A stretch of DNA of 64,000 bases, taken from NCBI GenBank assembly GCA_010092885.1, contig JAADYX010000381.1:6144-70143 (forward strand). The letters run 5' to 3'. The position numbers and the translations under genes were made by a program. The notes beneath the pieces were generated by a model. That model was not told where the DNA came from. It ran no database searches and saw only the letters and a program-made list of their open reading frames with translations. Positions 36,234 to 47,337 of the stretch are shown here, in pieces. Origin of the DNA: Chloroflexota bacterium (GTDB lineage Bacteria > Chloroflexota > Anaerolineae > Aggregatilineales > UBA3940). Numbering within the stretch: the first letter of the stretch is position 1; each line of letters opens with the position of its first letter.

Positions 36234-37550
36234 GTGGGCATTCCGCTGAAGACCGGCCGCAAACGCCGGAGTTACGCTGACTACAAACCGCCGAAGCGCA
36301 AACGCCCGCGCGATCCGTTTCTGATCCTACTCATAATCGCCCTCATCGCGGGTGGGTTGTGGGTGTCTGCAAACAGGGATACGATGCGTGCGGAAATCAC
36401 CTCGTTGGTCGATGAGGACTCCAACCCGATAAGCCAGTTAATCGGCACGCAGCAGGTACAAGACACTGCTGGATCTCCAGGCGGCTCTACGCCGACAGCA
36501 GCCCCGGATGAGACCGATCTGGTCAATCAGGCGCAGGAAGCACTTGGGACCGGAGACATCACGCGCGCTGTTGAACTCTACGAGCAGGCTGCCGACCTCA
36601 ATCCGAACGAGCCCTCCTATCCCTACCAGATGGCGCGCTTGCTGTTGTATCAGTCTGCACTGCAGTATGGTGACGAACGCGATGCCACACTGGAAGCGGC
36701 TTTCCAGGCGGCAAATCGTGCTATCCGTTCCGATCCACAGAGCCCGCATGGCTATGCAATTGCGGGCAAAGTGCTTGACTGGCAGGGGCAGCCGGAGGAC
36801 GGACAGAATGAGGTGCTGCGCGCGCTGGAGTTCGATGACAGCTTTGCGCCGGCATACTCGTTCCTGGCGGAGATCCAGATCGACCTGCAGCGCTACGAAG
36901 AAGCAGATGCGTCGATTCAGACCGCCCTATCCCTTGATCCGCAGAACCCGGATGTTCTGCGCGATTATGCCTATGTGCTGGAAAGCCAGACACTCTATGC
37001 TGACGCTGTGGATCAATACCAGCAGGCAATTGCCGTAAGCCCAGAGATCGCATTCTTGCGCCTGGCATTGGCGCGAAACTACCGTGTGCTGACGGATTGC
37101 CAGGCTGCCTTGGACGAGCTCTTTGCCGCAGAGCCGTTTGCGCAGGGAAGTCCCGTGCTTCAGTTTGAGATCGGGGTGACATACGAGTCCTGCGTGGGCG
37201 ATCTGGCTACCGCTGTGCAAAGCTATGAGCAGGCTCTTGAAATTGATGAGGACTTCGCGCTTGCCTGGGAGCGCATCGGCACCATCAGCTACTATCAAAA
37301 TGACTACGTGCGCACTACACAGGCGCTCGGCAGAGCATATGAGCTGGGGCGGGACAGTCTCGCCATTAATTTCCAGTTGGGGTATGCACTCGCCCAGCAG
37401 CAGCAGTGTGCTGAGGCACAAACTTACCTGACCAGTGCCCAAGAGCTGGTGACAGAGGAACAAGAAGCCATTCAGGATGTGATCAATGAGGCGGTTGAAC
37501 TCTGTTCGCTGCCACCTTCCACACTTGAACCTGAAACCGAGGCTCCATGA
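36234..37550 (+). CDS. Membrane-anchored TPR protein
   Basis: Same architecture as the upstream gene. Confidence 0.85.
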   Translation: MGIPLKTGRKRRSYADYKPPKRKRPRDPFLILLIIALIAGGLWVSANRDTMRAEITSLVDEDSNPISQLIGTQQVQDTAGSPGGSTPTAAPDETDLVNQAQEALGTGDITRAVELYEQAADLNPNEPSYPYQMARLLLYQSALQYGDERDATLEAAFQAANRAIRSDPQSPHGYAIAGKVLDWQGQPEDGQNEVLRALEFDDSFAPAYSFLAEIQIDLQRYEEADASIQTALSLDPQNPDVLRDYAYVLESQTLYADAVDQYQQAIAVSPEIAFLRLALARNYRVLTDCQAALDELFAAEPFAQGSPVLQFEIGVTYESCVGDLATAVQSYEQALEIDEDFALAWERIGTISYYQNDYVRTTQALGRAYELGRDSLAINFQLGYALAQQQQCAEAQTYLTSAQELVTEEQEAIQDVINEAVELCSLPPSTLEPETEAP

Positions 37551-38233
37551 CAACGGTACTCTTGGTTGACGACGAACAGAACATCATCGAATTGGCGCGC
37601 ATGTATCTCGAGCAGGAAGGCTACTCCATTCTGGAGGCCGGTGACGGGGTAACTGCCCTGGATATGATTCTCGGGGATGAGCCGGATCTGGTTGTGCTCG
37701 ATCTGATGCTGCCTGAGCTGGATGGGTGGGAAGTCTGCAAGCAGACACGTGCCAAGTCCGATGTGCCCATTCTGATGCTGACGGCCCGCGATGATGATAT
37801 CGACAAGATCGTGGGGCTGGAACTGGGTGCAGACGACTACATGACCAAACCCTTCAACCCGCGGGAATTGGTCGCACGCATTAAGGCTATCCTGCGCCGG
37901 GTGGGTGGTAATGCTCGCGCAGATGAGACCCGTGAGACGCTGACCGTGGGCGATATTGAGTTGGATCCGGGCGGACGAGAGGCTGTCGCCAACAATACCA
38001 CGCTTGACCTGAGAGCCAAAGAGTTCGATCTGCTGCATGTCCTGATGGAAAACGAGGGACTTGCTTTAAGTCGGGAGAAACTTCTGAGCCTCGCGTGGGG
38101 TTTCGATTTTTACGGGCAGACACGCACGGTTGATGTCCATGTGGCGCATCTGCGTAAGAAACTGGCTGATGCCAACAGCAGCGTGGAAATCGAGACGGTG
38201 TGGGGTGTCGGGTACAAACTCAATGCATCTTAG
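37547..38233 (+). CDS. OmpR/PhoB-family response regulator
   Basis: VDD, LDLMLP, ADDYMTKPF, RTVDVHV, ETVWGVGY. Confidence 0.95.
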   Translation: MTTVLLVDDEQNIIELARMYLEQEGYSILEAGDGVTALDMILGDEPDLVVLDLMLPELDGWEVCKQTRAKSDVPILMLTARDDDIDKIVGLELGADDYMTKPFNPRELVARIKAILRRVGGNARADETRETLTVGDIELDPGGREAVANNTTLDLRAKEFDLLHVLMENEGLALSREKLLSLAWGFDFYGQTRTVDVHVAHLRKKLADANSSVEIETVWGVGYKLNAS

Positions 38234-38235
38234 GC

Positions 38236-38264
38236 TTGACAAATCCAATGTCACGCCGTATCCT
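38236..38264 (+). promoter_or_regulatory. Sigma70-type promoter of the aro-tyrS operon
   Basis: TTGACA-N17-TATCCT. Confidence 0.75.
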
Positions 38265-38311
38265 GATGAAGTAGTAAGCAGCGTGCAAAGCGCCGAGAAG
38301 GGAACCCAGGC

Positions 38312-38392
38312 GTGAGAAGCCAAGGACCAAACGTCCTGTTTTCAAGCTATTATTATGGCCCGCTTGCGTGGAGGATTTCTCCGTCCGCCTGA
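38312..38392 (+). CDS. Putative aromatic amino acid leader peptide MRSQGPNVLFSSYYYGPLAWRISPSA
   Basis: GTG start after GAAGGGA; TTT, TAT-TAT-TAT and TGG codons; lies between the promoter and a terminator upstream of aroH. Confidence 0.75.
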   Translation: MRSQGPNVLFSSYYYGPLAWRISPSA

Positions 38393-38425
38393 TGGCGGCT
38401 GCCTGCTGACAGCTAAGTGTGCAAT

Positions 38426-38454
38426 GGCGCGGAGTTAAACTCCGCGCCTTTTTT
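38426..38454 (+). terminator. Attenuator terminator in the aro leader
   Basis: GGCGCGGAGT-TAA-ACTCCGCGCC followed by TTTTTT. Confidence 0.85.
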
Positions 38455-38480
38455 GTTTTGTTCTGTGGAAAGAGGTGACA

Positions 38481-38855
38481 ATGCGCGGTGTGAGGGGAGC
38501 AACCACAGCACCCACCAATACCAGACAAGCCATGCTGGACGCGACACGGGAACTGCTCGTGCGCCTTGTAGAGGAGAACGACATCCGCACGGAAGATATC
38601 GTCAGCATCTTTTTTACTGCGACAACGGATCTCAATGCTGTCCATCCGGCCCTTGCCGCCCGTCAGTTGATGGGCTGGACCTACCTGCCGCTGTTGTGTG
38701 CACAGGAGATCGCGGTGCCGAACAGCCTACCACGTACGATCCGAGTTTTAATCCACTGGAACACACCAAAAACGCACGACGAGATCAGACACGTGTACAT
38801 CAACGGCGCAGAAGTACTGCGCCCCGATTTCGCAGGAAAGGAAGAACCGACATGA
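38481..38855 (+). CDS. aroH: Chorismate mutase, AroH class
   Basis: [39 protein letters not shown]. Confidence 0.93.
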
Positions 38856-39865
38856 TCATCGTGATGGAGCAGGGTGCCGCCGAGTCGGATCGCCAAGGGG
38901 TCATTGAGTGGGTCGAGGAACATGGCTTCCGGGTCCACATCTCAGAGGGTGAGGAGCGTACAATCATCGGTGTGATCGGCAACGACCGCCCCGTTGATCG
39001 CGATCAGGTTGCGCGACTGCCGGGTGTCGAACGTGTTGTGCCCGTGCTGGCCCCGTATAAGCTGGCCAGTCTGGATATGCACCCCCAGCCGACAACGATT
39101 CCGCTCAATGGGAGGCAGGTAGGCGGCAGCCGGGTACTGGTCATTGCCGGGCCGTGCTCGGTGGAAAGCCGCGAACAGATCCTTGAAACCGCGCATGCGG
39201 TCAAGGAGGCCGGAGCAACCGCACTGCGAGGGGGCGCCTACAAACCCAGAACGTCGCCTTACAGCTTTCAGGGCCTTGGGGAAGAGGGTCTGGAGCTCCT
39301 GGCAGAAGCGCGCGAGGCGACCGGACTTCCAATCGTGACCGAGGTGATGGCTCCGGAGTTGGTCGAGCTGGTCGGGCAGTATGCTGACGTGTATCAGGTT
39401 GGGGCGCGCAACATGCAGAACTTCGCTCTGTTAAAGGCGGTGGGCAAAACAGACAAACCTGTGCTGCTCAAGCGTGGGGCTTCCAATACGATGGAAGAAT
39501 TGCTGATGGCCGCCGAGTACATACTGAGCAAAGGCAACCTGAATGTGATGTTGTGCGAGCGGGGCATCCGGACATTTGAACCGTACACACGCAATACATT
39601 TGATGTGAATGCCATCCCAGCATTGAAGATGCGCACCCATCTGCCAATCATCGCGGATCCGAGCCATTCGACCGGACACTGGGAGCTGGTTGGTCCGGCG
39701 GCCCTGGCTGCGGTCGCTGCCGGTGCCGATGGTTTGATCATTGAGGTGCATCCACGCCCTGAGGAAGCACTGAGCGATGGACTGCAATCACTCAAACCGG
39801 ATCGCTTCTCCGATCTGATGGGCCGGATGCGTGCGGTGGCTGAGGCCGTAGGGCGCAGCCTGTGA
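38852..39865 (+). CDS. aroF: DAHP synthase type I-beta with N-terminal regulatory domain
   Basis: [36 protein letters not shown]; real start MIIVM at 38852. Confidence 0.93.
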
Positions 39866-41154
39866 GCACCCTCACTGTCTCGCGAACGCCGGCCCTGCGG
39901 GGGCGAATATCTGTGCCTGGCGACAAGTCAATCAGCCACCGGGCGCTGATCCTGGGGATGCTGGCCGCGGGTGAAAACCGCGTGCGCGGCTGGCTCCCCG
40001 CAGGTGATACACTCGCCACGCTGGGGGCGGTGCGAGCTTTGGGAATCGATGTCCTGCGCGAGAATGAGACCAGCCTGCGCTTTCAGGGAGGGGGGCTGCG
40101 TGAACCTGCGGCCCCGCTCGACTGCGTGAATGCCGGAACGTGTATGCGGCTGCTGGCAGGTGCTCTCGTCGGGCAGACGTTCCCGTCTGTATTGGATGGA
40201 TCGCCGCAGCTGCGCCGCCGCCCGATGGCACGCATCACAGGGCCGCTGCGTGCTATGGGGGCCTCAATCTCCGACACGGATGGGCGTGCACCCCTGCATA
40301 TTGAACCGGCACCGCTGCACGGTCATGAGCACACACTCAGTGTTGCCAGCGCTCAGGTGAAGAGCGCGATCCTGCTGGCAGGTCTACATGCTGAGGGTGC
40401 GACGGTTGTTCATGAACCTGGACCCAGCCGCAACCATACGGAAGTGATGTTGCAAGCCATCGGGGCTGACTTAAAGGTCGATAAGCACACCGTGCACCTT
40501 GCTGCGGCACAGCCAAGGCTGGAACCGCTCGAGCTGGATGTACCGGGGGATATCTCCTCGGCGGCATTTGTGCTGGTCGCGGCGGCCTGTCTGCCCGGTT
40601 CGGATGTAGTGATCGAGCATGTCGGTTTGAACCCGACACGTACAGGCATCCTGGAGGTGCTGGCACGAATGGGATCCGACGTGGCGAGCACGGAGCGGGA
40701 AGAGTCAGGTGGTGAGCCTCTGGGCACGCTGCGCATCCGCGGTGGCGATCTGCGCGGTGTCAGTCTTGGTGGCGATCTGATAGTGCGGGCCATTGATGAA
40801 CTGCCGGTCATCGCAGTGGCTGCAGCACAGGCAGCCGGGGAAACGCGAATCACCGTTGCTGCCGAACTGCGCGTCAAAGAGGTGGACCGGATCGCGGTGG
40901 TGGCACAGGAGCTGCGAAAATTGGGAGTGCAGGTCAGCGAGCAGCCAGATGGCATGGTCGTTGAAGGTGGCCATCCGCTCAAAGGGACAGCGGTAGACAG
41001 CCACGGCGATCATCGTATCGGTATGATGTTGGCCGTGGCTGGGCTGTTTGCTGAGGGCGAGACCCATATCCAGAATGCGGGCTGCATTGCGGATTCGTTC
41101 CCCGGGTTCGCCGCGACGTTGGCCGCACTTGGGGCGGAGGTGCGCACCGCATGA
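39862..41154 (+). CDS. aroA: EPSP synthase
   Basis: [31 protein letters not shown]. Confidence 0.95.
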
Positions 41155-41951
41155 CCACACGTGCGGGGCTGCTCGGCTGGCCGGTTGAACACAGCATCTC
41201 ACCGGTGATGCACAACGCGGCCTTCAGGGCGCTTGGGCTTAACTGGTCCTACGATCTGCTGCCGGTTGAACCGAGTCGCCTGCAGGCTGAAATCATGACC
41301 CTGCTAGAGGATGGCTATGTGGGCTTCAATGTCACGATCCCGCATAAGCAGCAGGTGCTTAACCTGCCCGGTGTGGAGCCTGAGCCGGCTGTGCAAACCC
41401 TCGGTGCAGCGAATACCCTTGTCCGGCAAGGCGATCGGCTGCGTGCCCACAACACTGATTGGACTGGCTTCCGCGACGATCTGGAGGCGCATGACGTGCA
41501 CCCCGCTGGTTGGGACTGCCTCGTGCTCGGTACGGGTGGATCCGCAGCGGCGGTGGCCTATGCGCTCCGACGGATGGCTGCGGCTTCGGTAACGTTTGTC
41601 AGCCGTAGCCCGGAAGGCAGGGCAGACACCATCGGCTACGCGGACCTGGACGATCATCAGGCTGTGCGCCTGGTTGTCAACTGCACCCCGCTTGGTATGC
41701 ATCCGCGTGTGGAAGGTTCCCCCTGGCCACAAAAACTCCCTCTGCCAGATTGTGCAGTCATCTATGACCTTGTCTACAATCCCGTTAGAACACAGTTAGT
41801 GGCACAGGCTGAAGCGGCTGGCCTGCGTGCCCTGTCCGGGCTAGGGATGCTGGTTCGGCAGGGTGCTGCGGCATTTGCACTGCGGACCGGTCAACAACCG
41901 CCACTGCCTGTGATGCTAAACGCTGCACAAACTGCACTGGGGGGGTCATGA
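41151..41951 (+). CDS. aroE: Shikimate dehydrogenase
   Basis: HSISP, NVTIPHK, NTD, DLVYNP, GLGMLV. Confidence 0.93.
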   Translation: MTTRAGLLGWPVEHSISPVMHNAAFRALGLNWSYDLLPVEPSRLQAEIMTLLEDGYVGFNVTIPHKQQVLNLPGVEPEPAVQTLGAANTLVRQGDRLRAHNTDWTGFRDDLEAHDVHPAGWDCLVLGTGGSAAAVAYALRRMAAASVTFVSRSPEGRADTIGYADLDDHQAVRLVVNCTPLGMHPRVEGSPWPQKLPLPDCAVIYDLVYNPVRTQLVAQAEAAGLRALSGLGMLVRQGAAAFALRTGQQPPLPVMLNAAQTALGGS

Positions 41952-42622
41952 TATCTTTCTTTCGCACACGGATTCCGGGCATGCTGCAGAAACGCGTTTT
42001 TCCTGATTTTCATTCGCGTTTGCAGTGGGTAACGGACCGGACAGACTCATACAAAATCATCATTGGAGCAGGCGGACACGCCCAAAGAGGGTGGGTTCGC
42101 TCAGAGATCGACGAACTGAATCTACTTGAGGAAGCGGACTGGGCAAAGTACTTTGAACCGGGCCAGATCGATGCTATGGTGGCCGAGCATGTGTGGGAAC
42201 ACCTGACGCGAGAGCAGGGCCTTGAAGCCGCACGGCGCTGCTGTCAGTATCTCAAGCCGGGGGGGCACCTGCGGATCGCCGTGCCAGATGGTTTGCATCC
42301 GGAGGCCGCTTACATCGAATGGGTGAAGATCGACGGGGTCGGGCCTATGGCCGACGATCACAAGGTGCTTTACACGTACCGGACACTCTCCGACCTGGTG
42401 AAGGAAGCGGGCCTAGTGCCCCGTTTGCTCGAATACTGGGATGAGGATGGAGTGTTCCACCAAAACCCTTGGGATCCGGACGATGGCTACATCAGCCGGA
42501 CACCCCGCTTTGACTATCGCAGGCGGCATGGCATCGAACAGTATACCTCGCTGCTGATCGATGCCGTCAAGCCGCTGTCAGGAAAGGATATAAGCAATGG
42601 AGCAGCAAGCAGCAATCGCTGA
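41948..42622 (+). CDS. Class I SAM-dependent methyltransferase-like protein
   Basis: IIIGAG, AEHVWEHL, LKPGGHLRIAVPD. Confidence 0.8.
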   Translation: MISFFRTRIPGMLQKRVFPDFHSRLQWVTDRTDSYKIIIGAGGHAQRGWVRSEIDELNLLEEADWAKYFEPGQIDAMVAEHVWEHLTREQGLEAARRCCQYLKPGGHLRIAVPDGLHPEAAYIEWVKIDGVGPMADDHKVLYTYRTLSDLVKEAGLVPRLLEYWDEDGVFHQNPWDPDDGYISRTPRFDYRRRHGIEQYTSLLIDAVKPLSGKDISNGAASSNR

Positions 42623-43895
42623 GAATTTGGTTGAGGAACTGCGCTGGCGTGGGTTGATCAACGATGCAACCGAAGGCGCACTTGACGTGTTGGCCGAGCA
42701 GGCCGTTACAGCCTACATCGGGTTTGATCCCACGGCAGACAGTTTGCACGTTGGGTCGCTGGTTCCGATCATGACGCTGGTACATCTTCAACGCCATGGG
42801 CATACTCCCATTGCGCTGGTTGGGGGCGGCACCGGCATGATCGGCGACCCGAGTGGCAAGTCTAAAGAGCGCAGTCTCCTCGATGAGGAGACGCTTGCGC
42901 ACAACCTGCGGAGTATTCGCGCACAGCTGGAGCGTTTTCTCGTCTTTGACGGCGTGACCAATCCGGCCGTTATGCTCAATAACGGCGATTGGCTGGGCGA
43001 GCTCAACCTGATCGCCTTTCTGAGAGATGTGGGCAAGCATTTCACCGTCAACTACATGATGGCCAAGGACTCAGTCAAGAGCCGGTTGAGCAGTGAAGAA
43101 GGCATCAGCTACACGGAATTCACATATATGCTCCTGCAAGCGTATGACTTCCTCGCGATGTACCGCTCACACGGCTGCACCTTCCAATTCGGCGGGAGCG
43201 ACCAGTGGGGCAACATCACCGCAGGCACGCAGTTGATCCGGCGGATGGACAGCGGCGAGGCTTACGGTGTCACCCTACCCTTGGTGACCACAGCCAGCGG
43301 AGTGAAATTCGGCAAGACGGAGGCGGGCACCGTCTGGCTGGATGCCGAGCGCACATCACCGTTCCGGTTCTACCAGTTTTGGATCAATACCGCCGACGAC
43401 GATGTGCTTGACTACTTGAAGTTCTTCACGCTGCTGAACTCCGAGGAGATCGATGAGCTTGCAGCCAGTCTCAGTGAGGAGCCGTGGAAGCGTGATGCAC
43501 AGACTCGCCTGGCTGAAGAGGTCACACGGTTGGTACATGGTGATGATGCCCTCCAGCGCGCCCAACAGGCCACCGAAGTCCTGTTCGGTGGGGCGTCATT
43601 TGCGGATATGGACGCTGACGAACTCCTCGATATTTTCGCGGAGGTGCCTTCCAGTGAGGTGACCCCTGAGCAGTTGGAGGATGGGTACAGCATCGTTGAT
43701 GCTTTCGTTGATGCGGACCTGGAAACATCCAAGAAGCGGACACGCCAACTGATCGAAAATGGCGGTGTGTATGTCAACAACGAACCCGTCGAGACCACTG
43801 ATGCTGCGCTCCATCTGGCTGATGCTATTGATGGCCGCATCATTGTGCTGCGCAAGGGTAAGAAGAAGTACCATCTCATTCGGGTGATCGAATAA
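42597..43895 (+). CDS. tyrS: Tyrosine--tRNA ligase
   Basis: YIGFDPTADSLHVG, GGSDQWGNI, KFGKT, C-terminal S4 domain. Confidence 0.97.
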   Translation: MEQQAAIAENLVEELRWRGLINDATEGALDVLAEQAVTAYIGFDPTADSLHVGSLVPIMTLVHLQRHGHTPIALVGGGTGMIGDPSGKSKERSLLDEETLAHNLRSIRAQLERFLVFDGVTNPAVMLNNGDWLGELNLIAFLRDVGKHFTVNYMMAKDSVKSRLSSEEGISYTEFTYMLLQAYDFLAMYRSHGCTFQFGGSDQWGNITAGTQLIRRMDSGEAYGVTLPLVTTASGVKFGKTEAGTVWLDAERTSPFRFYQFWINTADDDVLDYLKFFTLLNSEEIDELAASLSEEPWKRDAQTRLAEEVTRLVHGDDALQRAQQATEVLFGGASFADMDADELLDIFAEVPSSEVTPEQLEDGYSIVDAFVDADLETSKKRTRQLIENGGVYVNNEPVETTDAALHLADAIDGRIIVLRKGKKKYHLIRVIE

Positions 43896-43929
43896 GATTT
43901 GCGACCTGCCTGCCGACAAACTAATATCG

Positions 43930-43969
43930 ACACAGCATTTCGGGGATCTACGTCCCCGAAATGCTGTGT
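43930..43969 (+). terminator. Long hairpin after tyrS
   Basis: 17-bp perfect stem ACACAGCATTTCGGGGA / TCCCCGAAATGCTGTGT with a 6-nt loop; no U-tract. Confidence 0.55.
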
Positions 43970-43996
43970 GGGACTGTATCGTATGATAAGGGCACT

Positions 43997-45166
43997 ATGA
44001 TCGCCAACCAGGATTTTGTCATCCTCTCCACCCAAGATTGGGATGCCCTGCCAACCCGCAAGCATCGCTTTGCACGCCGTTGGGCACAGCAGGGCAACCG
44101 GGTGCTGTATATTGAGCAGCAGATGCACTGGGCAGGCTGGCTGGCGGATATCGGGAATCAGTTCAGCCGGGCATGGTCCTTTCTGGAAAGCCCGCAAGAA
44201 GTAGAGCCGAATCTCTGGGTTTACACCCTGCCGCTGGTGCTTCCGTTCTTCCAAATGGTGGCCGCGATCAATACGGTCAACAACGCTTTCCTGCTGCCGG
44301 TCATCAAAAGGCAGACCGCCCGTCTTGGCTTTCACCATCCAATCCTGTGGGCGTACACACCCCATTCAGCGGATTTCATCGGCCGGTTGGGCGAACGCCT
44401 CGCCGTCTATGAGTGCGTGGATGACTTCACCGCCTCGAAGGGACTCGTACATCCGGCGACAATCGGGCGGTTGGAGGAGCGCCTCATCAGACGGGTGGAT
44501 CTACTCATCACGACGGCACCGGCGCTGCACGATCACAAATCGGACCATGCAAAACGGGCGGTGCTTGTCCCCAATGGTGTGGATGCCGACCACTTCGCAC
44601 AGGCTGCTGACGACTTGCAGCCTGTACCGGCAGCCATGCGGGATCTGCCGCGGCCCGTGATAGGCTTTCTCGGGTCGTTAAACTACTGGATTGATACGGG
44701 TCTTTTGGGGCGCATCGCACGGGAGCATCCCGATTGGACAGTGGCACACGTCGGCCCGGTGGATATGCTGGCGGATATGTCGCCACTGCAAGGGCTGCCC
44801 AACGTCGCGCTGATCGGTCGGGTGCCCTATGCTCAGGTGCCCGATTATGTACGTGCATTTGATGTCTGTGTAAACCCATACCATCTGGATGGAGTAGCTG
44901 AGCATTGCAGCCCATTGAAACTCTACGAGTACATTGCAACGGGCAAACCCGTTGTCTCCGTAGATATGCCCGAGGCCCGGCAGTTTGATGGGTTGATCGC
45001 TATCAGCCAGGATGCCGAGGATTTCGTGCGGTTGGTAGGCGAGGCTGCTGTACAGCACGTCAACGGTACGCAAGCCCGCATTGAGGAAGCGCGCAAACAT
45101 GACTGGGCACGCCGTTTTGAAGCCGTTGAGGCCGCACTGGCTGAGGTGCTGAGGGCGACAGCATGA
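43997..45166 (+). CDS. GT-B glycosyltransferase (TuaH-like)
   Basis: YECVDD, VPNGVD, PLKLYEYIATGKPVV. Confidence 0.88.
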   Translation: MIANQDFVILSTQDWDALPTRKHRFARRWAQQGNRVLYIEQQMHWAGWLADIGNQFSRAWSFLESPQEVEPNLWVYTLPLVLPFFQMVAAINTVNNAFLLPVIKRQTARLGFHHPILWAYTPHSADFIGRLGERLAVYECVDDFTASKGLVHPATIGRLEERLIRRVDLLITTAPALHDHKSDHAKRAVLVPNGVDADHFAQAADDLQPVPAAMRDLPRPVIGFLGSLNYWIDTGLLGRIAREHPDWTVAHVGPVDMLADMSPLQGLPNVALIGRVPYAQVPDYVRAFDVCVNPYHLDGVAEHCSPLKLYEYIATGKPVVSVDMPEARQFDGLIAISQDAEDFVRLVGEAAVQHVNGTQARIEEARKHDWARRFEAVEAALAEVLRATA

Positions 45167-45867
45167 GCGGTGTGTTGATCATCGTGCCTGCTTACAACGA
45201 GGAAGAAAGCCTCCCTCGGGTGATAAGCGCAGTCCGTCAGTCGGTACCCCACGCTGAGATCGCTGTTATCAATGATGGCTCCACCGACGCCACCGCGCGG
45301 GTGGCTGCCGAGTGTAGTGTGGTTGTGCTCAACCAACCCTACAATCTGGGGATTGGTTCCACCATGCAGACAGGCTATATGTACGCCATGCAGCAGGGTT
45401 TTTCAGTAGCGGTGCAAGTCGATGGGGATGGCCAACATAATGCCGAGGAAATCCCCGTGCTGCTGGAAGCCCTGACCGAACCCGATGTGGACGTGGTTAT
45501 CGGCTCGCGGTTTATGCATGAGGATGGATACCGTCCGCCTGCGATGCGCCGCCTGGGTATCGTGATCCTTTCCGGCATTCTCTCACTGGCAACCGGGCAG
45601 CGCATCACGGATCCGACGTCTGGCTTCCGGGCAGTCAACAAGCGTACGATCGCGTTCTACGCACAGGATTATCCCTTTGACTATCCAGAACCGGAGGCGA
45701 TCATATTGCTGCACCGGGCAGGGCTGCGCATCCGCGAGGTACCTGTTCGCATGAGCGAACGGCTGGGTGGGCAGTCGTCGATCACACCGATGCGCTCCGC
45801 CTATTATATGATCAAAGTCGTTCTGGCCATCCTGATCAATTTACTCCGGCATCGGCCTGAGGTGTAA
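45163..45867 (+). CDS. GT2 glycosyltransferase (polyprenol-phosphate glycosyltransferase-like)
   Basis: PAYNE, DGSTD, DGDGQH, DPTSGFR. Confidence 0.9.
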   Translation: MSGVLIIVPAYNEEESLPRVISAVRQSVPHAEIAVINDGSTDATARVAAECSVVVLNQPYNLGIGSTMQTGYMYAMQQGFSVAVQVDGDGQHNAEEIPVLLEALTEPDVDVVIGSRFMHEDGYRPPAMRRLGIVILSGILSLATGQRITDPTSGFRAVNKRTIAFYAQDYPFDYPEPEAIILLHRAGLRIREVPVRMSERLGGQSSITPMRSAYYMIKVVLAILINLLRHRPEV

Positions 45868-45871
45868 GTAT

Positions 45872-46243
45872 ATGCTCATTCCCTTTGACGCGCGTATCCA
45901 TCTGCTTTCTATCGCTGGACCCCTGGTGATGATCCTGGTCGTCCTTGAGATGGTCCGCCGCCGCCGTCTGCGAGAGGACTATTCGCTGCTGTGGCTGGGC
46001 GCATTCGGCGTGATCATCGTGTTGGCCATTCTGCGTGATGCACTCCTGGAACGCATCGCGGCGATCATGGGCATCTATGAGGCTGCAAACGCCATGTTTG
46101 TTATCGGGTTTGCATTGCTCGTTCTTGTCCTTTTCCAGTTCTCAATCGTGATCACCCGGTTGGCTCGTGAGAACAAACAGGCTGCCCAGCATATCGCGCT
46201 GCTGACCCAACGCATCGCTGAGCTTGAGCGCAAGCTGGACTAG
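45872..46243 (+). CDS. DUF2304 family membrane protein
   Basis: VRRRRLREDYSLLW; 3 TM helices plus a coiled tail; follows a GT2 gene. Confidence 0.8.
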   Translation: MLIPFDARIHLLSIAGPLVMILVVLEMVRRRRLREDYSLLWLGAFGVIIVLAILRDALLERIAAIMGIYEAANAMFVIGFALLVLVLFQFSIVITRLARENKQAAQHIALLTQRIAELERKLD

Positions 46244-46245
46244 CT

Positions 46246-47337
46246 GTGCATTGTGTCCACATCAGCAAGGTGACCGGTGTCGCGGGCTCGGAGCGGCATC
46301 TGCTCAGTCTGCTGCCCGGTCTGGCTGAGCGCGGTCTGCGGATCACGATGCTCGTGCTTGAAGAACCGGCCCGACCAGCGGACGATTTCGTAGATGCTCT
46401 TATTGAACAGGGCGTCACAGTACAACGGGTGCCCATCCGGTCGCATCTTGATGCGCGCCTACCGGGTGAGTTGCGGCGCCGCTTGAAACGCCTCCAGCCC
46501 GATGTCGTTCACACGCACCTGGTGCATGCTGATTTCTATGGTCTGCCTGCCGCCCATCAAGCCGGGGCGGCATTGTGTATTTCATCGCGCCATAATGACA
46601 ATGCGTTTCGGCGCAATCTACTGTTCCGGGCAGCGAACCGGCGCGTGATGCGGCATACCGATCGTGTGATCGCGATCAGCAGGGCACTGGCACGTTTTGT
46701 CGCTGACGTGGAGGGCATTGACCCTGAGAAGGTTGTTGCCATTCCTTATGGGATGCAGCCACCGATCTACCCTGCCAACATCCGGACACAGGCGCGGAAA
46801 GCGCTGCACCTTTCACCGGGGGCGGTTGTGATCGGGTTTGTGGGCCGTCTGATCAGGCAGAAAGGCGTGGACGTGCTGCTGCAGGCGGTAGGTCATCTGC
46901 CGGATGTCCAAGTCGTCATTATAGGCGATGGGCCGCTGCGCGCCGAACTGGAAGGGACAGCGGGTGAGCACGTCCGGTTTGTAGGGTGGCGTCACGATGC
47001 GCGTGAACTGATGGCTGCTTTCGATGTGCTGGCGGTGCCCTCCCGTTGGGAGGGATTCGGGTTGGTAACTTTGGAAGCGATGAGCCACGCACTGCCGGTG
47101 GTAGCTGCCCGCGTGAGCGCTCTACCTGAGATCGTGGTGGATGGTGAGACCGGCCTATTGGTGCCAGCTGAGGACGCTGCGTCTCTGGCTGCCGCGCTTA
47201 ACACGCTTGTCACAGATCTGGATCTGGCGCGCCAGATGGGCCAAAAGGGCTATCAGCGTCTCTGTCATCACTTCTCTGAGCAAGCCATGATACAATCGAC
47301 CTACGACGTGTATACGAATAAGGACGGAGTTGTATGA
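46246..47337 (+). CDS. GT4 glycosyltransferase
   Basis: VGRLIRQKG, PSRWEGFGLVTLEAM. Confidence 0.9.
   Translation: MHCVHISKVTGVAGSERHLLSLLPGLAERGLRITMLVLEEPARPADDFVDALIEQGVTVQRVPIRSHLDARLPGELRRRLKRLQPDVVHTHLVHADFYGLPAAHQAGAALCISSRHNDNAFRRNLLFRAANRRVMRHTDRVIAISRALARFVADVEGIDPEKVVAIPYGMQPPIYPANIRTQARKALHLSPGAVVIGFVGRLIRQKGVDVLLQAVGHLPDVQVVIIGDGPLRAELEGTAGEHVRFVGWRHDARELMAAFDVLAVPSRWEGFGLVTLEAMSHALPVVAARVSALPEIVVDGETGLLVPAEDAASLAAALNTLVTDLDLARQMGQKGYQRLCHHFSEQAMIQSTYDVYTNKDGVV

Follow-up and report, generated by a model that had tools for sequence, protein, structure and literature searches.

A probable leader-peptide transcription attenuator family upstream of aroH and DAHP synthase genes in Chloroflexota

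The leader and the operon from aroH to tyrS

We analysed a 64,000-nucleotide stretch of DNA (hereafter the window) from a Chloroflexota bacterium (GenBank assembly GCA_010092885.1, contig JAADYX010000381.1, positions 6,144 to 70,143), and specifically the leader of ~185 nt that precedes a six-gene operon running from aroH to tyrS. The genome is a metagenome-assembled genome (MAG) of 4.06 Mb in 431 contigs with 61.5% G+C. The leader contains a promoter, a short upstream open reading frame (uORF) with clustered codons for aromatic amino acids, and an intrinsic terminator, and it very probably represents a family of ribosome-mediated (leader-peptide) transcription attenuators that sequence comparison indicates is conserved in Chloroflexota upstream of aroH and/or the gene for DAHP synthase (DAHPS). 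The promoter, uORF, codons, terminator and downstream genes had each been proposed in a first-pass annotation of the window, and all are present. The features of the leader are as follows.

38236..38264, + strand: promoter, with the -35 element TTGACA at 38236-38241, a 17-nt spacer and the -10 element TATCCT at 38259-38264 (10 of 12 consensus matches)
38312..38392, + strand: leader uORF MRSQGPNVLFSSYYYGPLAWRISPSA, 26 codons, GTG start at 38312 and TGA stop at 38390-38392 (open reading frame call)
38339..38356, + strand: control codons TTT (38339-38341) and TAT TAT TAT (38348-38356), in frame (read from the sequence)
38357..38403, + strand: protector domain, in which an outer stem pairing 38357-38364 with 38391-38403 encloses the hairpin between segments 1 and 2 (1:2 hairpin; minimum-energy fold)
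38369..38371, + strand: single TGG codon inside segment 1, in frame (read from the sequence; regulatory role doubtful in this copy)
38379..38389, + strand: segment 2 CTCCGTCCGCC, the putative antiterminator strand in the last uORF codons, which can pair with the terminator 5' arm (folding and family complementarity)
38426..38459, + strand: intrinsic terminator, with the stem GGCGCGGAGT-TAA-ACTCCGCGCC at 38426-38448 and then the T-tract TTTTTTGTTTT from 38449 (scan and folding)

This arrangement has the parts of an attenuator. Specifically, a short open reading frame lies between the promoter and the first structural gene, starting ~40 nt after the promoter; codons for the pathway's own amino acids are clustered within it; and a terminator lies between it and the first structural gene. 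A scan of positions 37500-39500 found three promoter-like sites, compared with 0.8 ± 0.9 in shuffled sequence, and in the sequences of relatives TTGACA-type promoters are seen by eye in the equivalent position before their uORFs. The TTT codon and the three TAT codons are minor codons of this genome, in whose long open reading frames TAT makes up 37% of Tyr codons and TTT accounts for 29% of the Phe codons; Phe is represented in the uORF by one codon only. A second small open reading frame (38355-38438, ATG start, 27 aa), which lies in a different frame over the 3' half of the leader, was set aside as it lacks an aromatic run and enters the terminator stem.

The terminator stem comprises 10 pairs, eight of them G-C, and folds at -20.2 kcal/mol (z = -7.27), an energy that none of 200 shuffled sequences reached. 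The first-pass annotation had also described mutually exclusive pairings of segment 1 with segment 2 and of segment 2 with the terminator 5' arm (2:3). Both can form, the 1:2 hairpin (38367/38368-38375 with 38380-38388) at -9.4 kcal/mol (z = -1.67, with 14 of 200 shuffles as good) and the 2:3 fold (38379-38434) at -24.1 kcal/mol (z = -1.70, with 11 of 200 shuffles as good). The outer stem of the protector domain begins at the codon directly after the three Tyr codons (38357), and the minimum-energy fold of 38357-38456 has an energy of -44.7 kcal/mol (z = -3.08). Taken by itself, this sequence puts only the terminator clearly beyond chance; both alternative pairings exist, and neither is unusual for the G+C-rich spacer. 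What lifts the feature above chance, as judged by comparison of sequences, is the conservation of its layout in relatives.

The genes around the leader, assigned with Pfam, are the following.

38481..43895, + strand: operon of six genes from aroH to tyrS
38481-38855, + strand: aroH, chorismate mutase type I
38855-39865, + strand: DAHP synthase with a ferredoxin-like N-domain
39862-41154, + strand: aroA, EPSP synthase
41151-41951, + strand: aroE, shikimate dehydrogenase
41948-42622, + strand: methyltransferase
42597-43895, + strand: tyrS, tyrosyl-tRNA synthetase (TyrRS)
37547-38233: gene for an OmpR-type response regulator, the upstream neighbour of the leader

The operon starts 26 bases past the T-run, the ends of neighbouring genes overlap or abut, and a scan of the + strand within 38460-44200 found no promoter-like or terminator-like sites. 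Among 10 relatives from the same family or order that were examined for gene order, aroH-DAHPS occurs in all 10 and aroA-aroE in nine. The tyrS gene directly follows aroE in five of the 10 (L097, L098, L100, L102 and L104); it falls outside the fetched stretch in four, and in one more the contig ends within aroE. The regulated set comprises the Tyr/Phe side of the pathway together with TyrRS, which matches the codons of the leader.

In eight of the nine relatives with aroA, a gap of ~0.9 kb separates the DAHPS gene from aroA, and the window operon has no such gap (39862-39865). At L097, the sole locus tested in this respect, the gap (2027-2911) encodes prephenate dehydrogenase, a gene that is lacking from the window operon. 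Elsewhere in the window's own genome, contig C373 carries a single open reading frame of 457 aa (L139 1318-2691) with a partial NAD-binding domain of prephenate dehydrogenase (PDH_N) and a prephenate dehydratase domain (PDT), apparently a TyrA-PheA fusion; nothing resembling a leader was seen upstream of this fused gene.

Conservation of the leader among Chloroflexota

At the DNA level the leader (query bases 1-245) aligns to none of 40 relatives; in 15 of the 40, DNA matches begin inside aroH, at query base 249 or later. The layout is nevertheless conserved in orthologous leaders, as would be expected of an attenuator. In all 15 family and order relatives, an in-frame uORF upstream of aroH carries four to eight aromatic codons within eight, with at least five in 13 of them (runs include WYAYYFYF, FYFYFYF and FFFSFYFYFW). 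We also scanned with an AroH profile, using one genome per species, and scored the 80 aroH loci so obtained by the number of Tyr, Phe or Trp codons in eight. At least five of eight codons were aromatic in 48 of the 53 loci labelled Chloroflexota and in one of the 27 from other phyla (mostly Planctomycetota). Conservation of the uORF and its aromatic codons in orthologous leaders was a test that had been set beforehand in the first-pass annotation, and these counts bear it out.

The Chloroflexota labels represented are Anaerolineae, Anaerolineales, Aggregatilineales, Thermoflexales, Caldilineaceae, Ardenticatenaceae, Promineifilaceae, Roseilinea, Chloroflexaceae, Roseiflexaceae, Chloroflexus and Roseiflexus; the last two genera have cultured members. 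Five Chloroflexota loci fall below the threshold, one of which has only 98 nt of upstream sequence and four of which score 4/8; two of these four (L065 and L078) are still recognised by the family model described below. The antisense strands of the aroH upstream regions mostly contain two to four aromatic codons in eight. The sole exception outside Chloroflexota is L051 (1337-1457), from a MAG labelled Lentisphaeria, which has a full leader with the run YYYWFYYY and an aroH 63% identical to that of the window; its presence there could reflect a binning error or horizontal transfer.

We tabulated 60 leaders. Each has an in-frame start codon, ATG in 45, and the predicted leader peptides are 20-78 aa long (median 34) with nothing in common except the aromatic run. 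The runs contain Tyr in 60 of 60 leaders, Phe in 59 and Trp in 22, with codon totals of 202 Tyr, 184 Phe and 24 Trp. Codons ending in U are preferred (TTT 148 versus TTC 36; TAT 113 versus TAC 89), a preference that may tune the sensitivity of stalling. A terminator was found by a strict rule in 55 of the 60 leaders, with its 5' base 54-91 nt past the final aromatic codon (72 nt for the window leader); the remaining five have hairpins with poorer T-runs. One of the leader peptides, at L015, reads MKHINFFFSFYFYFWSHRRRSAAL and is encoded by a uORF ~270 nt upstream of aroH. Its start resembles that of E. coli PheL (MKHIPFFF...), a likeness that is probably convergence.

A covariance model (R1) was built from the leaders, with the window copy as part of the seed. 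In the window's own genome, R1 matches exactly one site, which is the window leader (41.6 bits). Across 150 other Chloroflexota genomes, sampled evenly, 46 contain a match at E <= 0.01 (47 of 151 when the window's own genome is counted). Among the 29 best loci of that sample, 20 matches lie directly upstream of aroH-DAHPS and five lie upstream of a DAHPS gene without aroH. In the latter arrangement (L131 and L133-L136, ~1501-1632 in each) the leader directly precedes the DAHPS gene, and the enzyme encoded at L131 is without the ferredoxin-like N-domain. The remaining four of the 29 (L129, L130, L132 and L138) were rejected as leaders, being the end of a gene plus a terminator, repeats, or matches to the terminator only.

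Neither R1 nor a scan for a terminator plus a run (at least five Phe, Tyr or Trp codons in seven) found further Tyr/Phe leaders in the window's own genome. On contig C84 of that genome there is a His leader, MIVKTNRHHHHSVTRG, with four consecutive His codons (L107 324-374), followed in order by a terminator (~L107 404-431), hisG (448-1470) and hisD (1467-2804), which suggests that attenuation is a general strategy in the lineage. A Thr-rich frame before a terminator on contig C12 was not counted as a leader, as it is the end of a 102-aa open reading frame and a long minus-strand open reading frame lies beyond it.

Alternative pairings, ribosome position and competing explanations

We examined the pairings across the family. 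On an alignment of 55 leaders made with MAFFT (A2), 94.5% of the cells of the terminator helix are paired and 11 of 11 pairs show compensatory changes, and none of 500 shuffles reaches any of these measures. Covariation therefore strongly supports the terminator at the level of sequence. Of the stems whose covariation the first-pass annotation had proposed to test, the terminator is thus borne out, whereas covariation in the antiterminator is modest and its covariation scores are not significant.

For the antiterminator we used a set of 49 non-redundant leaders, from which 10 near-duplicates had been dropped (L018, L021, L030, L031, L034, L050, L071, L074, L084 and L085). In 47 of the 49 leaders, the most stable pairing of segment 2 with the terminator arm starts 12-27 nt past the final aromatic codon; the uORF stop codon lies at or past the end of segment 2 in 41. 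The mean energy of cognate spacer and arm is -16.0 kcal/mol, compared with -14.19 ± 0.35 kcal/mol for permuted partners, and none of 20,000 permutations reaches the cognate value; in 36 of the 49 leaders the cognate arm is in the better half when ranked with non-cognate arms. We also tested a fixed antiterminator register taken from one Chloroflexia-type leader. On A2 this register pairs 65.6% of cells, versus 40-49% when slid. On a model-made alignment of 92 rows, five of them reverse-strand partial matches (A3), it pairs 66.6%, versus 41-50% when slid; no shuffle of 500 reaches this pairing, and 19 of 500 reach the number of cells with double changes. By eye, there are clade-specific compensatory changes (arm CAAC with GTTG versus arm CGAC with GTCG). 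Comparison across the family moderately supports the antiterminator.

From this arrangement we infer that the uORF is translated, that ribosomes stall at its aromatic codons and that their position sets a switch. Transcription would begin ~40 nt before the 26-codon uORF. When Tyr-tRNA (and Phe-tRNA) is plentiful, the ribosome would reach the stop codon and would there occupy segment 2 (38379-38389), because segment 2 lies in the last uORF codons; with segment 2 occupied, the terminator (38426-38448) and T-run would form and transcription would end before aroH. When charged tRNA-Tyr or tRNA-Phe is scarce, the ribosome would instead stall at TTT or TAT-TAT-TAT (38339-38356), leaving segment 2 free to pair with the terminator 5' arm, and RNA polymerase would read through into aroH and onward to tyrS.

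We modelled the effect of ribosome position by masking the RNA behind a ribosome front edge placed 13 nt from the A-site codon and folding the transcript up to the terminator loop. Averaged over the 49 leaders, the probability that the terminator arm is sequestered is 0.67 for a ribosome stalled on the final aromatic codon; moving the ribosome to the stop codon lowers it to 0.28, and shuffling the spacers gives 0.53. The stalled value exceeds the value at the stop codon in 44 of the 49 leaders and the shuffled value in 43. In the window the energies separate in the same model: the antiterminator folds at -24.1 kcal/mol with the ribosome stalled and at -7.5 kcal/mol with the ribosome at the stop codon, relative to -20.2 kcal/mol for the terminator. 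The strong antiterminator of this copy holds while the A site is between 38348 and 38366. With the A site at the TGG codon (38369) it falls from -24 to -17.8 kcal/mol, because the ribosome begins covering segment 2. A stall at a Tyr codon keeps the strong antiterminator and therefore fits read-through; a stall at the Trp codon does not. The earlier suggestion that a stall at the Trp codon allows read-through in this copy thus does not fit the model, which makes Trp sensing here doubtful. The related suggestion that one leader senses several aromatic amino acids agrees with the composition of the runs across the family, in which Trp occurs in 22 of 60 leaders; for this copy it is weakened by the single Phe codon and by the doubt over Trp. 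It had further been proposed that a ribosome stalled at the three Tyr codons masks segment 1. The modelled front edge at ~38361-38367 would cover the outer stem and would leave the GGAG core of segment 1 uncovered. The main switch that the model predicts is the covering of segment 2, inside the last uORF codons, by the ribosome.

More tentatively, and with rather less than even confidence, we propose that this Chloroflexota family, which spans at least two classes, uses one leader peptide to sense how far tRNA-Tyr and tRNA-Phe (and tRNA-Trp in roughly one member in three) are charged; that it governs entry into the shikimate pathway along with tyrA and tyrS; and that it might do so mainly through the ribosome covering the antiterminator strand in the last uORF codons. 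The default without translation would then be read-through, unlike in the trp paradigm.

Several observations weigh against a leader-peptide attenuator of this kind. The window copy stands at the weak end of the family, with four aromatic codons in eight where the others mostly have five to eight, and its leader ranks 80th of 87 forward matches to R1 despite being in the seed. Its uORF begins with GTG, preceded by only a weak Shine-Dalgarno-like stretch that scores 0 in a 4-mer test. The duplex between segment 2 and the arm has an energy here of -14.3 kcal/mol (z = -0.22), no better than that formed by a shuffled G+C-rich spacer, and modelled sequestration of the arm in the window is about the same whether the ribosome is stalled (0.64) or at the stop codon (0.65), or the spacer is shuffled (0.67). 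A ribosome held at TAT reaches no further than the edge of the protector domain, and the 1:2 protector makes little difference in the family model (0.58 without a ribosome versus 0.67 stalled). On A2, 15 of 500 shuffles reach the antiterminator pairing and 217 of 500 its covariation score; on A3, with its reverse-strand rows, 87 of 500 reach the covariation score. The leaders, moreover, are kin, and shuffles can be beaten without structure, so these counts overstate independence.

We considered three other explanations. The hairpin could simply end transcription of the response-regulator gene upstream (37547-38233), or serve as a general insulator, with the open reading frame containing the Tyr codons a chance frame. 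The terminator does lie ~190 nt after the regulator's stop codon, regulator-like genes are also found upstream of several Chloroflexia leaders, and the short aromatic run of the window (4/8) and its alternative pairings are unremarkable when taken alone. A near-consensus promoter nevertheless stands between the regulator gene and the hairpin, and the family model matches no other site in the window's own genome. Furthermore, in 48 of 53 Chloroflexota aroH loci, with differing upstream neighbours, the uORF, run and terminator recur with conserved spacing, as against one of 27 in other phyla. We regard this explanation as improbable. Slightly less probable still is a leader that works independently of translation, as a T-box, as another riboswitch or as the site of an RNA-binding protein that recognises the U/A-rich run. 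In Firmicutes, tyrS and aromatic genes are known to be under T-box control; the run is, at the nucleotide level, a conserved U/A-rich stretch as well; and 32 of 60 leaders have an open +1 frame with a start codon across it, so that openness of the frame alone is not decisive. What is conserved, however, is the identity of codons in one frame (TAT and TAC interchange, as do TTT and TTC, and Tyr and Phe are swapped), with a start codon upstream and a stop codon at the end of segment 2. The leader is only ~185 nt long; no Rfam match at E <= 1 falls on it or on the leaders at 20 relatives' loci; and there is no conserved extended structure beyond the terminator.

The uORF might, on the other hand, be translated and act through its nascent peptide, by TnaC-like arrest in response to free aromatic amino acids, or encode a small functional protein. 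Aromatic-rich nascent chains can interact with the ribosome exit tunnel, and the peptides are 20-78 aa long. The peptides, however, have no common sequence outside the run and vary widely in length, and were abundant Tyr or Phe to trigger stalling, a biosynthetic operon would be expressed more strongly, a response of the wrong sign. The favouring of minor, wobble-read codons (TTT 148 versus TTC 36 in the family; three TAT codons here) fits sensing at the level of codons instead, and we give this last explanation as little credence as the translation-independent leader. Taken together, the comparisons favour a leader-peptide attenuator at this locus and in its relatives.

Relation to known systems

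The leader family is apparently uncatalogued, being absent from Rfam 15. Searching positions 37000-47000 of the window with Rfam 15 at E <= 1 returned no match, and at gathering score the whole window contains only a tRNA. At 20 relatives' loci, seven matches had E <= 1, all of them away from the leaders and below gathering score. Membership of Phe_leader (RF01859; gathering score 55 bits) was rejected, as there was no match at E <= 1 in 37000-47000 and none on the leaders of the 20 relatives; membership of the T-box family (RF00230) was likewise rejected, with no match at E <= 1 here or at the 20 relatives' loci. Upstream of the leader promoter at one relative's locus (L024 1066-1158) lies an unrelated long near-perfect palindrome, which gives the only sub-threshold match to Phe_leader (39.5 bits versus the gathering score of 55) and matches to microRNA families, with hits on both strands, and which is probably a bidirectional terminator.

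In full-text searches we found no paper describing aromatic leader peptides in Chloroflexota, and an earlier prediction is possible, for example in the 2010 cross-phylum survey of attenuators by Lopatovskaya et al. In the part of it considered here, another study of classical attenuation treats Chloroflexi only as too sparsely sampled (PMC4833913).

Leader-peptide attenuation is a textbook mechanism and nothing in the present proposal is conceptually new. What the family would provide is a widely conserved and easily annotated regulatory element for Chloroflexota, a large phylum that is mostly uncultured and whose gene regulation is almost uncharacterised, at the entry into aromatic amino-acid synthesis. 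A Tyr-dominant leader is of note in that Tyr supply is classically sensed by repressors (TyrR) or T-boxes and not by leader peptides. The R1 covariance model could be used to annotate such leaders in MAGs, and the mixed runs of Tyr, Phe and Trp codons form a natural series in which to study how codon composition sets the specificity of an attenuator.

The window leader resembles E. coli trpL in having mutually exclusive hairpins, and its 1:2 hairpin looks like a degenerate version of the terminator. Segment 1 of trpL contains the control codons; those of the window leader stop 10-14 nt short of the 1:2 core, and the 3' end of its uORF contains segment 2. Also unlike trpL, the main switch in our model is the ribosome over segment 2, with the protector playing a minor part. 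The Tyr T-box of Firmicutes (RF00230) shares with the proposed leader its signal (tRNA charging), its output (antitermination) and similar target genes, but a T-box binds tRNA directly, without translation.

In E. coli, the pheL-pheA and pheM-pheST systems place a gene of the chorismate mutase type and aminoacyl-tRNA synthetase genes, respectively, under the control of charged-tRNA supply, as described in the parts of two accounts considered here (PMC11802643, PMC3082878). As far as those parts go, the window leader is like pheL and pheM in that a short uORF carrying an aromatic run is combined with an intrinsic terminator and alternative pairings; it differs in that those leaders are gamma-proteobacterial and carry Phe codons only, whereas the window leader is Tyr-dominant.

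The closest tested analogue, judging from the part of the source considered, is the aroR leader of Corynebacterium glutamicum, which encodes Phe-Tyr-Phe before the aroF (DAHP synthase) operon and at which stalling raises transcription (Neshat et al. 2014, as described in the review PMC11802643). The portion of that review considered here reports that aroR responds to limitation of Phe and not of Tyr, and makes no mention of aroH or tyrS. The two systems, compared by description only, differ in that aroR is from Actinobacteria and has three regulatory codons versus the runs of 5-10 in the present family; they are alike in placing mixed aromatic codons in a leader peptide ahead of a DAHP synthase operon.

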